A DNA stretch of 64,000 nucleotides. It comes from Escherichia phage vB_EcoM_ACG-C40. Positions 2,418 through 51,317 of this stretch are shown in pieces (positions within the stretch are counted from its first letter, which is position 1; the number at the start of each line of letters is the position of its first letter). The position numbers and the translations under genes are program-made. The stretch is taken from the sequence record NC_019399.1. One strand, 5' to 3'. Under the pieces are notes generated by a model. It searched no databases, was not told where the DNA came from, and saw nothing but the letters and a program-made list of their open reading frames with translations.

Positions 2418-2447
2418 ATTATACCACATCCTTGTGGTAAAGTAAAC
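2418..2447 (-). promoter_or_regulatory. T4-type early promoter
   Basis: Minus strand GTTTAC -35, 18-bp spacer, TATAAT -10. Confidence 0.6.
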
Positions 2448-4264
2448 TACTGGCTCATCCATTCTTTACGAAGGTCAGCATTATCTCCCATGAGCATTTC
2501 AAAAAGCTCTTTCCAGTTCTCAGGAAGTTTAACAACATCATATACTGGATTTTGAATCATCTCACGATATTCAGATTTTTCCAAAGAGCCAAGTCCTTTA
2601 ATATAACGGATGCTATGTTTAGGTAGAGCATCTTTGGCACTCTCATATTCAGCGACTGTATAAAACCATTCTTGTTTTTTACCGACCTGAGCGATGATTA
2701 CAGGAGTTTTGACGAAGCGAATTCTTCCTTGTTCAAACAGTTCTGGCCAATTACTAAAAAATCCGAGCAGAGAAGGATAAATGCTTCCTAGACCATCATG
2801 GTCAGCATCAGTCATAATAGCGATATTATGATAATTCAAGTTTTCAGCTTTTTCACCGAGAACTAATCCAGTGATTGCGCAAATATCAAACAATTCTTTG
2901 TTTTTAAGCATATCAGCATATGACATACCCCAACTGTTGAGAACTTTACCGCGCAATGGATAACCACCATGAAGTTCTTTATCACGAACATCAATAAGAT
3001 ATCCGATAGCAGAATCACCCTCAGTCAAGAAAAGAGTAGTGTCAGCATCTTTACCGCAAAGATTCGCTTTAATGTGTTTATGAACCTTAGCTTTAGAAGC
3101 CTTTTTAGCTGCTTTAGTTTCTGCTGCCTTTTCTGCCGCCAATTTACGAGCCAAAGCAGCTTCAATAATCGGCATTAGAATTGCTTCATTATTTAGAATA
3201 GCACGTGAAATCTTTTTAGCATCAAGTTGAATATGACTACGGATTTCACCAAATGGAGAAGTCAAACGCTCTTTAGTTTGAGAATCAAATCGCATGTTTT
3301 TCATATCACGGACAAACATAACGATAGTCAAACATTCTTTAACGCGTGCTTTAGTCACATCAATTTTGAACTTACGTTTGATTTGTGGAATAAGGTCTTC
3401 ACAAATATCATCCATAACACAGTCAATGTGATGGCCACCATTCTTAGTGTGAATGTTATTCACATAAGTTAATTGACGAAAACCATCCGGTGAACGACCA
3501 ACCGCAATAGAGCAATTTTCTTGTTCTTGAACGATAGCATGTTCATCATATTGGCGTGCATATTTCTTAAAATTGCCCTGAACCTTTTTACCATTAAAGG
3601 TAAATTGAATATCAGGATAAACTACTGCAAGTGTCTGGAGACGATCTAGTGTAATGTCAAGATAAACTTGGGACAGCTCATTAGTTTCAAATGACATAAA
3701 ATCAGGAATGAAAGTAACACGAGTTCCTTTCCATTTTCCAGGAATATCTTCCCATGATTTATTTTCCATGCCATTTGAACAACGAACTACAATATTATTT
3801 TGACCATCACCAGTTTCACCGACAAACATCACAGAAAAAATGTTTGTCAAACTAGAACCAACACCATTCATACCGCCAGTGACACGTTCTTTATCATCAC
3901 CAAAGTTACCACCTGCTTTTGGAATAGTCCATGCAGCAACTGGACCAGGAATTTCTTCACCGGTAGGTGTTTTAACCATCGCTTGTGGAATACCGCGACC
4001 GTTATCTTCAACTGTTACCTGATTATTTTTAATGGTAACATTAATTTTATTTGCGAATTTAAACTTAGTACGAATACCTTCATCTACTGAGTTATCGATA
4101 ATTTCATCAATAAGCTTAACAAGACCAGGTACATACTGAACACTTTCCCATTTACCAAACAGAAAGCGCTCATGCATTTCATTAGCAGAAGAGCCAATGT
4201 ACATGCCACTACGCTTTTTGATATGTTCAATATCGCTCAGAATTTTAATTTCATTCTTAATCAT
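2447..4264 (-). CDS. 39: DNA topoisomerase II large subunit, fused gene 39+60 form (605 aa)
   Basis: Single ORF; C-terminal IAIMTDADHDGLGSIY...KEWMSQ is the part encoded by separate gene 60 in T4; ATG 4264 preceded by GAGGA; track start 4267 is GTG. Confidence 0.9.
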   Translation of the reverse strand: MIKNEIKILSDIEHIKKRSGMYIGSSANEMHERFLFGKWESVQYVPGLVKLIDEIIDNSVDEGIRTKFKFANKINVTIKNNQVTVEDNGRGIPQAMVKTPTGEEIPGPVAAWTIPKAGGNFGDDKERVTGGMNGVGSSLTNIFSVMFVGETGDGQNNIVVRCSNGMENKSWEDIPGKWKGTRVTFIPDFMSFETNELSQVYLDITLDRLQTLAVVYPDIQFTFNGKKVQGNFKKYARQYDEHAIVQEQENCSIAVGRSPDGFRQLTYVNNIHTKNGGHHIDCVMDDICEDLIPQIKRKFKIDVTKARVKECLTIVMFVRDMKNMRFDSQTKERLTSPFGEIRSHIQLDAKKISRAILNNEAILMPIIEAALARKLAAEKAAETKAAKKASKAKVHKHIKANLCGKDADTTLFLTEGDSAIGYLIDVRDKELHGGYPLRGKVLNSWGMSYADMLKNKELFDICAITGLVLGEKAENLNYHNIAIMTDADHDGLGSIYPSLLGFFSNWPELFEQGRIRFVKTPVIIAQVGKKQEWFYTVAEYESAKDALPKHSIRYIKGLGSLEKSEYREMIQNPVYDVVKLPENWKELFEMLMGDNADLRKEWMSQ

Positions 4265-4318
4265 CACTTATCCTCGTTTGGTTTCGGGAATATTATACTC
4301 CGGTAATCATAAAGCTAA

Positions 4319-5156: not shown

Positions 5157-5566
5157 TCCTTAAAGTGAGCTTTCAACATCTGATACAAGGACCATGCCTG
5201 TTCATCATTTTCAATAGTAACTTTCATTACAGGGAATTTAGATTGATCAGTTATCGGTGCAGATTCTTCCTGCTCTTCAGCTGCCTGGTATGGATTTTCA
5301 ACTTCATTAAAGAATTCAGCTTCATTCGATGAAAGCCAAATAAAATCTTCATCCAAAATATCTTTACCAGAAGATAGTACTAAATTTCCAGCAAATGACA
5401 TAATTTTAATAGGACGCCCAAGAGCATCCACATCTAAAATTTTAAAAGGATGCATACCTAAACGGCGTGCATAGATTCCGTTATCAGTATGGTCTTTAAT
5501 AAAATTTTCTTGAGCTTGTTTATTTTTAAATTGATACCATTTATTAACTTCAAATTTAATAGCCAT
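5153..5566 (-). CDS. hypothetical protein (137 aa)
   Basis: ATG start; 1-nt overlap with upstream stop. Confidence 0.5.
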
Positions 5567-5781
5567 TAATAAATTTCCTTCCAGTAAGTTGTACCATCTT
5601 CAGTGATTTCACGAAATACACCGTAAATTGGTTGTTTATCCCCAACCTTTTCATACACATAAACCGAAGTCAAGTGAGTAAACTTAGCAGTGTGTTCCTT
5701 TTGAACTACTACCAAATCTGGATCGAATAACACATCTTCAAATTCGTCATTAGTGCAGTTCTGAACAATTTTACGTTTCAT
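5566..5781 (-). CDS. hypothetical protein (71 aa; size and position of T4 cef)
   Basis: ATG 5781; identity by synteny and length only. Confidence 0.45.
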
Positions 5782-5880
5782 TACAATTTCCTCGTTAATT
5801 GAACATTGGAGCGATGCGTTTCAGAAGAGTAGCAGCACCTTTGGCAAATTTTCCATTTTATTCTCCAAATTATTTTCTAT

Positions 5881-5923
5881 ATCAGTAGTTGATATTGATA
5901 TAGTACCATAATCAACTACTGAT
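5881..5923. repeat. perfect 13-bp inverted repeat with 17-nt loop
   Basis: ATCAGTAGTTGAT ... ATCAACTACTGAT; loop carries TGGTACTAT -10-like element. Confidence 0.7.
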
Positions 5924-5953
5924 GTATATAGTTTTATGAAAAAATTTTAAACT

Positions 5954-6445
5954 TTATGCATAGCGAGCTTTGCTGTAGTGTTTAATCCAACTTTCAGGAA
6001 TGACTTTGTATGTTCCTAAAAATACCACGTTGTATAACTTAACGCCATCTTCTACCCATTGATCAGTAATGTATGCACACATAGCACGAGTACGCCGAGG
6101 AAGTGGTTGTCCACCTTCGATAAATTCAAACTCATAAGGAGCAATGAACTTAATAGCTTGACCGAGTTTCCACTTAAAGTCTACACCTACATGCGAAGTA
6201 TCAATCGTTTCAATTCCTTTAGCGGGAACATCTTTCAAAAACGCAGATTCAAGAAATTTCGCGCGAACATAACCAAACTGAGGTTTAGACTTTCCATCTT
6301 TAGGAATGATACGCACTTTTACTTCAGAATCTTCATCTTTAACGCCGTGTTTAAGCTGAATGCTTACAATTTCGACCAATTTTCCTGCTGCTTTAGAACG
6401 GGATTTATCAGATACACGAGCAATTTCACCAATATTAATAATCAT
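5954..6445 (-). CDS. MotB-family protein, paralog 1 (163 aa)
   Basis: C-terminus ITDQWVEDGVKLYNVVFLGTYKVIP shared with next ORF; early promoter upstream. Confidence 0.55.
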   Translation of the reverse strand: MIINIGEIARVSDKSRSKAAGKLVEIVSIQLKHGVKDEDSEVKVRIIPKDGKSKPQFGYVRAKFLESAFLKDVPAKGIETIDTSHVGVDFKWKLGQAIKFIAPYEFEFIEGGQPLPRRTRAMCAYITDQWVEDGVKLYNVVFLGTYKVIPESWIKHYSKARYA

Positions 6446-6489: not shown

Positions 6490-6519
6490 ATTATACTCTG
6501 GTCCCAAGAGTTTGTAAAC
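6490..6519 (-). promoter_or_regulatory. T4-type early promoter
   Basis: GTTTAC, 18-bp spacer, TATAAT. Confidence 0.65.
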
Positions 6520-7067
6520 TAGCTTACACGAACATTAATCACTGCGCTACGAGGAACTACAGAGTATTCTCCAGCATGAACTACGTTCAGAAGTTCAACG
6601 CCATCTTCAATCCACTGGTCTGTTACCCAACCACAGATAGGATTATCAAAAGGACGACGGATAGACACAGCAGCACACAACAGGTCTGTAGGGTCTTGTT
6701 CTTCAACTTCTTGGAACAGGATGAACTCATCTTCATAAACCAGGTTTTTCTTTATTTTGTTATTATCTAACCGGCGACCGTGGATGACGTAAGATTTGTC
6801 AAACCACTCACTTTTGGCAAATTCTTCAACAATAAATTCGCCTTCGCCAAAAACATCAGTCAGAGTTTTATGACCAGAAATCAAGGCATTAGTTTTAATT
6901 TTAGGTTCAACCAGTTTGTAGGTTTTGCCGATTTCAATAGCGGTAGTCATAGTAGGTTCCTTAATTTCCAGTGGTTTAACAGGGCATACATAAGTGCTTA
7001 CAACATCAAAATCAATCAGTTTAGCTACCGGATTTGGTATGTATTCAGGATTATAATTAAATTTCAT
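6519..7067 (-). CDS. MotB-family protein, paralog 2 (182 aa)
   Basis: C-terminus VTDQWIEDGVELLNVVHAGEYSVVP paralogous to 5954..6445. Confidence 0.55.
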   Translation of the reverse strand: MKFNYNPEYIPNPVAKLIDFDVVSTYVCPVKPLEIKEPTMTTAIEIGKTYKLVEPKIKTNALISGHKTLTDVFGEGEFIVEEFAKSEWFDKSYVIHGRRLDNNKIKKNLVYEDEFILFQEVEEQDPTDLLCAAVSIRRPFDNPICGWVTDQWIEDGVELLNVVHAGEYSVVPRSAVINVRVS

Positions 7068-26775: not shown

Positions 26776-27012
26776 TCAAATGCAAGTAGTAATTACTCCA
26801 GTAGTGCTTATGCAGGTATTACCCATTTGCACACCTAAAGATCCATTTGTATTCACATGAAGATTATCATCAATTTTAACTGATATTTTACCATTAGTGT
26901 GAATAACAGTGCTAGATTCAATCACAGGTTGAGTATCATTTTCAACACTAACAAATGGAACTGCTGCTAATGCAACTAAACAAACTGCTAAGCAACCCAT
27001 AACAATTTTCAT
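26776..27012 (-). CDS. small secreted protein (78 aa)
   Basis: ATG 27012 after GGAG; track start 27069 lies between promoter -35 and -10. Confidence 0.5.
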   Translation of the reverse strand: MKIVMGCLAVCLVALAAVPFVSVENDTQPVIESSTVIHTNGKISVKIDDNLHVNTNGSLGVQMGNTCISTTGVITTCI

Positions 27013-27049
27013 TTTATTCTCCAAATCCGTATCAGTAGTTGATAGTTGT

Positions 27050-27079
27050 ATAGTACCATGGAAGAACATTCTTGTAAAC
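27050..27079 (-). promoter_or_regulatory. T4-type early promoter
   Basis: GTTTAC, 18 bp, TGGTACTAT; AAAATTTTCACAAAAC upstream element. Confidence 0.65.
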
Positions 27080-27166
27080 AGTTTTGTGAAAATTTTTTAG
27101 GGAATTCTAAATGTCCAGAATCATCTGTTTTTCATAAGTATAGATTTATATTACTTGTATGAAAAA

Positions 27167-27182
27167 GGGACCCGGAGGTCCC
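27167..27182 (-). terminator. intrinsic terminator downstream of gene 43
   Basis: GGGACC-UCCG-GGUCCC followed by UUUUUC. Confidence 0.6.
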
Positions 27183-27195
27183 TAGATTTATTCTA

Positions 27196-42561: not shown

Positions 42562-43388
42562 AATAATATCCAATTTTTCCAAGCTTCATCAGTAGAATTA
42601 CAGCGTTTTAGTATAAGATGTCTAGAAACTTTTATGGCATTTGAGCACTTTTTAATTGAATCATATTTAATACCGTCAACTGAAACGGTTTTGCTAGTTG
42701 GAGAAATTTTTCCATACATTGGATTTTTTGAACCAACTTGAAGTCCTTTTAAAGCTTTTGAAAGCTTTTGTCTAGATTCCAATGACATGGGAGAATTCTT
42801 TTTACCTTCAATAATTCGCTTGCGATGAAGTTCGCGTTCTTCTTCACTCAAAGAATTGTAATATTTTTTAACACCGTTTGATATAGATAATTTATCTTTC
42901 TCAGACCGCTCTCCAGCTAATTTACTTCTAACATCTTTTCGCTTCATAGCTATGCTTACGGCTTTATTTAAATTTGCTTGATGCTCTGGCGTACGTTTAT
43001 ATTTCTTTAAAGCACGTGAAATAGCTATTTTAGTTTCTTCTGTTCTCTTTTTACCTTTATTTGCTAAACTATTTTTGCGGCGATGTTCAAGTGTCTGTTC
43101 ATAGGCAGTTCCACCTTTTCCACCAGGTTTAATATTATATGTATTTTCTTTTAGACAATACTCTTCGGTTACAAGTTCAGCTTCTTTATCATACATCTGT
43201 TTTTCATTATCAAAAACATGTAAAATTTCTTTATTAAAATTTTTTCTACCATATTTTAATAAAGCGGCACGAATCAATGTTCCTGACCCCATATAACCGT
43301 CATTTATGTTATCGGTGCTATGCGCACCGATATATTCCTTTGAATTAATTATATTTGTTATTTTATAAATTATATAATACCTATGCAT
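42558..43388 (-). CDS. GIY-YIG homing endonuclease (276 aa) between nrdG and nrdD
   Basis: YIIYKITNIINSKEYIGAHS GIY-YIG motif plus NUMOD-like repeats; ATGA overlap with nrdG. Confidence 0.75.
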   Translation of the reverse strand: MHRYYIIYKITNIINSKEYIGAHSTDNINDGYMGSGTLIRAALLKYGRKNFNKEILHVFDNEKQMYDKEAELVTEEYCLKENTYNIKPGGKGGTAYEQTLEHRRKNSLANKGKKRTEETKIAISRALKKYKRTPEHQANLNKAVSIAMKRKDVRSKLAGERSEKDKLSISNGVKKYYNSLSEEERELHRKRIIEGKKNSPMSLESRQKLSKALKGLQVGSKNPMYGKISPTSKTVSVDGIKYDSIKKCSNAIKVSRHLILKRCNSTDEAWKNWILL

Positions 43389-51287: not shown

Positions 51288-51317
51288 ATAGTATCACACT
51301 ACTACCCTGCTGTAAAC
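51288..51317 (-). promoter_or_regulatory. T4-type early promoter upstream of ATPase gene
   Basis: GTTTAC, 18 bp, TACTAT; conserved leader CATTTTATTCTCCAA follows. Confidence 0.6.

Follow-up and report, generated by a model that had tools for sequence, protein, structure and literature searches.

The gap between motB and cef in this T4-like phage probably holds an early promoter/stem-loop cassette of the T4 type (PeSL) whose stem overlaps the -10 element of the promoter, and we hold the mechanism that we propose for it below with the same degree of confidence. At the sequence level the element appears to have all that characterises a PeSL apart from a consensus -35 hexamer, and since this is so we regard it as a further PeSL and not as a new kind of system. 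The hairpin appears to be under constraint, being invariant within the genus and, across genera, kept as a stem with compensatory changes. Compensatory changes have preserved the hairpin of this junction in eight genera or more, which indicates that selection acts on the stem-loop part of such cassettes as a structure, most likely one of RNA.

Hairpin and probable promoter in the motB-cef gap

The window, by which we mean the whole 64-kb stretch of DNA that was analysed, follows the standard T4 map in its coordinates (starting at rIIA), and the 3-kb stretch around the hairpin is 99% identical to Tequatrovirus (T4-like) genomes. The minus strand is the coding strand for all genes at the motB-cef locus, and the element is therefore read on that strand throughout. 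As a preliminary description of this DNA had it, there is a 172-bp gap between two genes; these are motB and cef, and some annotation pipelines place a spurious 'hypothetical protein' between them. The features of the locus are the following, with positions given in window coordinates:

5566..5781, minus strand: cef, modifier of suppressor tRNAs (phrog_1354, E=1.6e-38; annotations)
5782-5953, 172 bp: gap between the ORFs 5566-5781(-) and 5954-6445(-), that is, between cef and motB
5793-5789, minus strand: Shine-Dalgarno sequence of cef, GAGGA, directly after the original TAA of the deleted 89-codon gene
5795..5820, minus strand: out-of-frame 3' end of the deleted gene, down to its original stop TAA at 5797-5795 (alignment)
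5821..5856, minus strand: 11-codon ORF, MENLPKVLLLF-stop, with its ATG at 5856-5854; frameshifted stump of the 89-codon gene
5856..5866, minus strand: Shine-Dalgarno region GGAGAATAAAA, an 11/11 match to the optimal RegB/S1 site GGAGAAUAAAA
5881..5893, minus strand: 3' arm of the hairpin, ATCAACTACTGAT, predicted 5' end of the promoter-initiated RNA
5900..5908, minus strand: extended -10, TGG TACTAT (TGn 5908-5906, hexamer 5905-5900), inside the 17-nt loop
5911..5923, minus strand: 5' arm of the hairpin, ATCAGTAGTTGAT, occupying the spacer between -35 and -10; its reverse complement is the initial transcribed sequence of this same promoter
5923..5928, minus strand: -35 slot, TATACA, 17 nt upstream of the -10; 4/6 to TTGACA, the T4 early consensus being GTTTAC
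5930..5953, minus strand: A/T-rich UP-like tract aaagtttaaaattttttcataaaact, common to the cassette at 27 kb (alignment, position weight matrix)
5954..6445, minus strand: motB, MotB-like transcriptional regulator (phrog_1671, E=2.5e-76; annotation of near-identical phages)
6518..6490, minus strand: early promoter of motB, TTTACA-17-TATAAT (promoter scan)

On the minus strand, the motB stop codon (5954-5956) is followed by the A/T tract aaagtttaaaattttttcataaaact, ATATAC, the 5' arm ATCAGTAGTTGAT, the loop and the 3' arm ATCAACTACTGAT, and then by atagaaaataattt GGAGAATAAA ATG and the 11-codon ORF. The perfect 13-bp stem around the -10 element that had been described earlier is indeed present (5881-5893 pairing with 5911-5923), and its 17-nt loop, tatgg TACTAT atcaat on the minus strand, contains the -10 hexamer TACTAT. 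The hairpin lies about 30 nt past the motB stop codon. No second perfect inverted repeat of 13 bp or longer (loop 3-40) exists in the 64 kb, and Markov-1 simulations put the chance expectation for such repeats at about 0.1 per 64 kb and about 0.0003 per 172-bp gap. Folded alone, it reaches -19.4 kcal/mol as RNA and -11.1 kcal/mol as DNA. The fold z-score of the motB-cef cassette is -4.8, compared with +0.4 for the copy of the cassette at 27 kb, and the hairpin also appears in the minimum-free-energy fold of the 191-nt gap RNA (z = -2.4). When scanned against Rfam for a curated RNA family, the element gave only a chance-level match, to PK-PYVV (E=0.52; 21 bits, where the gathering score is 65).

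A stem-loop in an intercistronic position some 30 nt past the motB stop codon might be expected to be an intrinsic (rho-independent) terminator of motB transcription. Consistent with such a role, the stem-loop of PeSL211/210 acted like a strong terminator in lowering reporter expression, according to Arbiol et al. (2010, PMC2839356). Nevertheless, we rejected this candidate as scarcely credible: the stem is A/U-rich with a 17-nt loop, the tail that follows it (AUAGAAAAUAAUUUGG) has no U tract, and the terminator scan was negative at the hairpin, while upstream of the cassette at 27 kb there is, by contrast, a separate terminator that is canonical and G+C-rich. The terminator scan found no terminator-like site from the motB stop codon to the hairpin, and transcripts from motB's own early promoter can be inferred to read into the gap. 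Masking of the Shine-Dalgarno sequence by the hairpin was considered as well and was rejected, given that the Shine-Dalgarno sequence, which starts at 5866, is outside the stem, whose 3' arm ends at 5881. The energy of the duplex between spacer and Shine-Dalgarno sequence is ordinary for cassettes of the cef type.

T4 early promoters are UP/-35/TGn/-10 promoters (Hinton 2010, PMC2988021), and we scored the gap with a position weight matrix whose training set was 18 early promoters of the GTTTAC type, all on the window's gene strand. The UP part scores 11.9 bits against a training mean of 9.7, and the block comprising TGn, -10 and initial transcribed sequence scores 21.4 bits, compared with a leave-one-out mean of 12.0 and a background 99.9th percentile of 7.4; the -35 part reaches only 1.4 bits against a training mean of 12.2. 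The extended -10 of the cassette is TGGTACTAT. It had been proposed that the inverted arm had replaced GTTTAC at -35, which the alignment contradicts: the -35 slot holds ATATAC(A), and the 5' arm takes the place of the 17-nt spacer, overlapping the -35 hexamer by its last base only.

With so poor a -35, the promoter could be weak or silent. One reading, akin to the decayed copy of the preliminary description, is that the promoter is dead: the -35 was overwritten, promoter function was lost and only a structural hairpin, of RNA or DNA, is left in a non-coding gap. Besides the low score of the -35 slot (1.4 bits, where bona fide promoters have 12.2), it draws on a simple sigma-70 scan, which does not call the promoter (8/12 hexamer matches, with a threshold of 9), and on the downstream ORF being a stump in this phage. 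However, the UP tract, TGn, -10 and initial transcribed sequence all score at or above the level of the window's bona fide early promoters, and the promoter is thus not obviously dead. Furthermore, TATACA or TGTACA is found at -35 of cef-upstream and other early-type promoters in IME08, L031, RB69 and MHG19, with TATACA in the -35 slot of the cef promoter of IME08 and TGTACA in that of RB69. We infer that the promoter in the gap is functional, if possibly weaker, and consider a dead promoter unlikely. The papers that we searched on MotB and DksA and those by Hinton, Uzan-Miller and Nolan make no mention of a T4 promoter, 5' end or RegB cut at the gap; a literal literature search with the arm sequences returned unrelated primers only, and our literature search found no genome-wide study of transcription start sites in T4.

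The leader between hairpin and ORF contains the Shine-Dalgarno region GGAGAATAAAA, and the cassette ends, on its 3' side, in a Shine-Dalgarno sequence and start codon reading GGAGAATAAAATG. [quoted passage not shown] (2006, PMC1702504), where the legend to Figure 3A places cleaved sites at putative Shine-Dalgarno sequences of very small ORFs; the optimal site is also given in a review (PMC3014915). RegB is predicted to cut here between G5865 and A5864 (GG^AG). The site is unpaired in the fold of the isolated cassette and weakly paired in the 191-nt minimum-free-energy fold.

The gene stump, related cassettes and conservation within Tequatrovirus

The ATG at 5856 does open an ORF of only 11 codons, as had been noted, and this ORF ends at 5821 on the minus strand. 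Alignment with T2 and RB51 reveals a 208-nt deletion inside an 89-codon gene, located between the microrepeats GGAAAA and GTAAAA and common to this phage and T4; since 208 nt is not a multiple of three, the frame shifts and a stop follows after 11 codons. The 89-codon gene is T2_009 / RB51ncORF009c (phrog_3720, E=2.6e-46), of unknown function. T4 (AF158101, complement 6582-6624) has an identical hairpin and a similar stump. In T2, RB51, CrRp10 and the IMG/VR contig L007, the intact gene is found behind the same hairpin, promoter and leader, and there it ends just before the cef Shine-Dalgarno sequence. By hand tally of an evenly spaced sample of Tequatrovirus matches, the gene is intact in 33/57 and deleted in 24/57, and the stump itself carries further indels (L006 and PEC04 lack one A, and L003 has 3 nt inserted).

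Since the same hairpin stands in front of an intact gene in T2-type relatives, it predates the decay and was not made by it. The 89-codon gene, which T2-type phages have kept intact, appears to be the one that the cassette originally drove; with that gene reduced to a stump, the first intact gene to follow is cef, presumably the one that the promoter in the gap now serves. Of the decayed remnant that the preliminary description saw here, the remnant stands, in the form of the gene stump, but it is not the promoter cassette that decayed, as the intact gene behind the same cassette in T2, RB51, CrRp10 and L007 makes clear. Nor was the cassette 'repurposed as an RNA or DNA hairpin': the hairpin is old, identical in T4 and placed in front of an intact gene in T2, RB51 and CrRp10, an arrangement that also argues against a dead promoter. 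The same description had named an active promoter with a normal downstream gene, as seen by transcript mapping, as evidence that would tell against it and, in spirit at least, the intact gene of the relatives is such evidence.

The cassette has paralogues in the window, among them:

27007..27112, minus strand: paralogous cassette, with UP-like tract, GTTTAC-N17-TGGTACTAT, ATCAACTACTGAT and TTGGAGAATAAAATG

That the gap element belongs to the same repeated family of promoter-leader cassettes as this copy was recognised from the outset and holds true. The match between 5851..5908 and 27007..27058 is real and longer than originally noted, extending further upstream: in the alignment of the minus strands, similarity runs from the A/T tract AAAATTTT..CAyAAAACT through TGGTACTATA, ATCAACTACTGATA and TTGGAGAATAAAATG. 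Copies of the cassette, with similarity over about 100 bp, are located at 27007, 49817 and 51246 (27.0, 49.8 and 51.2 kb); TTGGAGAATAAAATG recurs at 27010 and 51249, and the initial transcribed sequence ATCAACTACTGAT is found again behind the promoters at 27079 and 49875 and behind the cef promoter of Jiaodavirus GF. The spacer of the motB-cef cassette has no similarity to the spacers of the paralogous cassettes in the alignment. The 27 kb copy is a textbook PeSL, driving a 78-aa secreted-type ORF (phrog_4189) and preceded by the terminator-like hairpin gggacctccgggtccc with a T run, which is separate from the cassette, G+C-rich and canonical; no stem brackets the -10 in this copy. For the 27 kb gene, no name could be taken from the annotation of phage Elenatom at 26.3-27.5 kb, where the coordinates diverge.

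We compared three 63-nt segments with the phage collection, namely the hairpin (5871-5933), the stump (5786-5848) and the 3' end of motB (5954-6016). Among the records covering at least 80% of the query, at least 494/496 are at least 95% identical to the hairpin segment; the same identity is reached by 220/492 records for the adjacent stump and by 430/447 for the 3' coding end of motB. Most hairpin records are one base off, and in the sequences that we read (T4, T2, RB51 and PEC04) this base lies outside the stem; in PEC04, the single variant inspected, the further difference is in the loop only. It thus appears that the stem does not vary among about 500 Tequatrovirus genomes, whereas the remnant next to it has drifted. 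This comparison of the gap in related phages had been suggested beforehand, with loss of the hairpin in relatives as the outcome that would count against it, and the hairpin proved to be conserved. Being invariant, the stem offers no covariation within the genus, and invariance of both arms is equally compatible with a sequence-specific reader.

Could the inverted repeat act, or have arisen, at the level of DNA only, with no role in RNA, either as a cruciform or recombination hotspot for PeSL-type shuffling of modules or as a by-product of template switching (a quasipalindrome)? The region is certainly plastic: relatives vary at this locus in their content of the 89-codon ORF and of MotB-like genes, an extra one of which lies upstream of the cassette in RB51 and CrRp10. 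PeSLs have been proposed as recombination sites, with one crossover mapped within a loop (PMC2839356), and a spacer unlike those of the paralogous cassettes is consistent with one templated event. On the other hand, the stump arose by a deletion within the ORF, with GGAAAA and GTAAAA at its ends, and not at the cassette; a DNA hairpin would be worth only -11 kcal/mol; the substitutions compatible with G.U pairing are biased to the sense strand (see the next section); and purifying conservation that is strong in comparison with the DNA around it speaks for a function and not for a passive scar. We give a purely DNA-level explanation a slim chance.

Stems upstream of cef in other genera

Homologues of cef are present in about 1,000 phage records. 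In representatives of at least eight other genera, an early promoter stands immediately in front of cef, and its -10 is enclosed by a stem that differs in sequence from that of Tequatrovirus:

RB69 (Mosigvirus): GGTCTAT / ATAGACC, 7 bp
IME08 (Dhakavirus): TAGGGTA / TACCCTA, 7 bp, with L031 likewise having 7 bp
Karamvirus and Moonvirus: AGGGCTAT / ATAGCCCT
CGG4-1 (Gelderlandvirus): AGGGTTAT / ATAACCCT, differing from Karamvirus by a compensatory change
MHG19: 11 bp
L014: 12 bp
Marfa (Marfavirus): 10 bp
L015: 11 bp, one of them a G.U pair

The canonical GTTTAC coexists with -10-bracketing stems in other genera, a further point against a promoter that died by the overwriting of its -35. The architecture varies: Gaprivervirus retains a hairpin with no -10 in its loop, Jiaodavirus GF has the leader ATCAACTACTGA and no bracketing stem, and in an RB49-like contig (L019) the stem is around the -35.

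Applied to a plain MAFFT alignment of 13 cassettes, RNAalifold returned an 8-pair hairpin around the -10, in which 5 pairs show compensatory change. Paired cells make up 88.5%, compared with 75.2% in shuffles (a level that 0/500 of them reach) and 36-47% with slid partners, the slide control being the fairer of the two because the 13 aligned sequences are related and the shuffle control overstates significance; the covariation score is 0.505 versus 0.228. By a hand count of pair types, the wobbles comprise 8 G.U cells on the sense strand versus 2 A.C cells, and this bias would favour sense-strand RNA as the molecule that folds. The stem of Tequatrovirus is longer than the cross-genus consensus hairpin and in another register (17-nt loop versus about 6 nt); it is best described as a putative lineage-specific version of the same architecture, and orthology of the stems is likewise putative.

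Among early promoters, -10-bracketing stems of at least 7 bp are enriched in RB69 (3 versus 0.42 expected), and the early promoters of Marfa have 4 -10-bracketing stems versus 0.07 expected. Examination of 31 promoter-like sites in the window detected no general enrichment, with stems of at most 6 bp occurring about as in shuffles, and among early-promoter stems the 13-bp stem is an outlier in Tequatrovirus. As a separate observation, the promoter spacer pairs with the cognate Shine-Dalgarno sequence at the window promoters 60637, 49875, 7627 and 17808 and at the RB69 promoters 7429 and 20523.

The cross-genus comparison also bears on the possibility that the repeat is an operator, the two 13-bp half-sites being bound by a dimeric phage or host DNA-binding protein that represses or times the promoter. 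A perfect 13-bp inverted repeat centred on the -10 has the classic geometry of such a site, both arms are fully invariant in about 500 genomes, and the mechanism by which early promoters are shut off is unknown according to the Hinton review (PMC2988021). Yet the arms have entirely different sequences from genus to genus, and the stem persists through compensatory and G.U changes, as structure would predict and sequence recognition would not. Moreover, many T4-type early promoters share the 3' arm as their initial transcribed sequence, a second perfect half-site exists in the 64 kb only in the leader of the paralogous copy at 27 kb, where it is unpaired, and no protein emerged as a candidate for binding; an operator is accordingly very unlikely. 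Each of the rival explanations agrees less well than the PeSL reading with the promoter scores, with the sequence context or with the covariation seen across genera.

Proposed mechanism and comparison with known systems

Read as a PeSL, the element would work through the position of its transcription start. Judging from spacing, RNA polymerase at the gap promoter would start at about A5893, 7 nt after the -10, and this is the first base of the 3' arm; RNA initiated at the promoter could not fold the stem, because it would begin with the 3' arm and the 5' arm would be absent. The read-through RNA from the motB promoter would hold both arms and fold into the -19 kcal/mol hairpin, which would mark and insulate read-through transcripts, whereas the embedded promoter would re-initiate an unstructured message for the downstream gene or genes. 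In doing so the hairpin might attenuate the read-through RNA, or it might shield the 3' end of the motB message from 3'-exonucleases; the barrier role would matter most after a RegB cut at GG^AG, 15 nt downstream of the hairpin. We favour the insulator role for the hairpin.

More tentatively, the -10-bracketing stem may be a conserved RNA device that separates transcript isoforms across Tevenvirinae (a 'promoter-embedded insulator'), with a sister version in which the spacer pairs with the Shine-Dalgarno sequence; we consider this generalisation possible but more likely wrong than right. Since the transcription start lies inside the stem, only read-through RNA would fold, and such RNA would meet another fate, be it blocked translation, protection of its 3' end or altered access of RegB or other RNases. 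In that case, the stem-loops of PeSLs would be post-transcriptional isoform switches rather than terminators, and part of the unexplained conservation of T4 early-promoter spacers would be accounted for.

Irrespective of this generalisation, the motB-cef gap of T4 is not an empty spacer: it holds a conserved cassette of promoter, hairpin and RegB site together with the stump of a gene that is still present in about half of T4's close relatives, and the logic by which this much-copied locus is annotated is corrected accordingly. Selection of the stem-loop as a structure is a testable refinement of the PeSL idea and implies no new kind of system.

PeSLs (promoter-early stem-loops) were defined in RB49/phi1; they combine an A/T tract and an early promoter with a stem-loop, and an accessory ORF contributes its Shine-Dalgarno sequence and ATG (Arbiol et al. 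2010, PMC2839356). In that paper, five stem positions are distinguished, the commonest being between -35 and -10 or overlapping the -10, and terminator-like as well as promoter activity is reported for the PeSLs tested. They were extended to T4/PST and KVP40/nt-1 by Comeau et al. (2014, PMC4122927), and the published T4/PST consensus is TTTACW-N17-TAYWAT. Just as in these PeSLs, the gap element begins at the stop codon of the upstream gene, is intergenic and consists of an A/T tract, a putative sigma-70-type early promoter, a stem-loop, a Shine-Dalgarno sequence and the ATG of a small accessory ORF; it likewise exists in repeated copies and at a locus with gene presence/absence polymorphism, and a stem-loop overlapping the -10 is one of the five geometries described. 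Compared with the T4/PST consensus, TACTAT, TGn and N17 are present in the gap promoter, but the -35 is TATACA and not TTTACW. Unlike the T4/PST PeSLs of the 2014 paper, the stem-loops of which lie just upstream of the promoter, the stem here brackets the -10, as described for RB49/phi1. It differs from PeSLs also in that the stem is A/T-rich, not polyG/polyC, in its non-consensus -35 and in that the local indel does not result from recombination between PeSLs.

Three further systems invite comparison. With T4 early promoters (PMC2988021) the gap promoter shares the UP-like tract, TGn, the -10 TACTAT, the 17-nt spacing and the initial transcribed ATCAAC, but it has ATATAC in place of GTTTAC at -35 and a spacer that is self-complementary to the initial transcribed sequence. 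As in the hairpins of T4 e, soc, 49 and I-TevI (PMC3014915), the promoter is inside the structure and only upstream transcripts hold both arms. In those four genes, however, it is the Shine-Dalgarno sequence or start codon that the 3' arm ties up, and a late or middle promoter is found inside, whereas at motB-cef an early promoter takes that place and 14 nt separate the 3' arm from the Shine-Dalgarno sequence after it. Finally, the Shine-Dalgarno region resembles targets of RegB/S1 (PMC1702504) in being exactly GGAGAAUAAAA, unstructured and intergenic, cleavage being predicted here. All in all, the element is ordinary for T4-type phages; what is mildly new is the conservation of structure across genera and, elsewhere, the complementarity between spacer and Shine-Dalgarno sequence.

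Shine-Dalgarno complementarity in promoter spacers

Complementarity to the cognate Shine-Dalgarno sequence is seen in the spacer, immediately 3' of the -35 element, of some early promoters. Examples from the window and from RB69 are as follows:

60637-60608, minus strand, window promoter; spacer TTTTCCTCTTG pairs with TAAGAGGAGAA (-19 kcal/mol)
49875-49846, minus strand, window promoter; spacer GTTCCTC pairs with GGAGGAAC (-20 kcal/mol)
7627-7598, minus strand, window promoter
17808-17779, minus strand, window promoter
7429, RB69 promoter; spacer TTCTCCTCTGGTT pairs with AACCAGAGGAGAA (13 bp)
20523, RB69 promoter

Pairing is stronger for cognate than for non-cognate combinations, with permutation p values of ~0.03 for the window and ~0.005 for RB69. 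Only in read-through RNA, i.e. in transcripts that originate at an upstream promoter, would the Shine-Dalgarno sequence be masked by such pairing.

Other stems and hairpins in the window

The motB promoter (6490-6519, minus strand) has its own -10 element, TATAAT, bracketed by a 6-bp stem, GGACCA...TGGTCC, and the promoter at 51317 has the stem AGGGTA...TACCCT, which reaches 8 bp when extended with one G.U pair. Both are short forms of the -10-bracketing geometry, and neither goes beyond chance expectation. Among the perfect inverted repeats of the window, the second longest, of 12 bp, lies at 43229-43264 (CTTTATTAAAAT, a 12-nt loop, ATTTTAATAAAG). The 27 kb early promoter, a paralogous cassette, has a terminator hairpin ~80 nt upstream:

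27150-27185, minus strand, G+C-rich hairpin of a canonical terminator; gggacctccgggtccc, then ttttt

The 27 kb promoter drives an ORF of 78 aa (phrog_4189) whose N-terminus resembles a signal peptide.

The motB-cef region in relatives and its annotation

In some Tequatroviruses a further MotB-like paralogue separates motB from the hairpin cassette (the probable early promoter whose -10 is bracketed by a 13-bp stem), and the upstream neighbour of the cassette is therefore variable:

378-797 in RB51, MotB-like paralogue
414-833 in CrRp10, MotB-like paralogue

In RB69 the upstream neighbour of cef is motB.2. Upstream of cef in Gaprivervirus EAWsc9 (~395-430) there is a hairpin, GATAGGG tttttg CCCTATC, with a 3' arm, CCCTATCAA, that also occurs in other genera; the -10 is absent from its loop and no -35 is recognisable. 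This looks like a hairpin that was kept once the promoter had been lost.

Some deposited annotations, e.g. PP925844 (Elenatom), have a 'hypothetical protein' that spans the region of the hairpin and the stump (window 5821-5944), the stump being the 11-codon gene remnant downstream of the hairpin. Here the remnant has probably been over-called.

Topoisomerase II large subunit

vB_EcoM_ACG-C40 has a fused topoisomerase II large subunit: one 606-aa ORF (2447-4267, minus strand) occupies the place of the T4 split genes 39 and 60, and the phage is therefore without the gene-60 insertion or bypass. In this it resembles RB69 (60plus39) and differs from T4, with its split 39/60.
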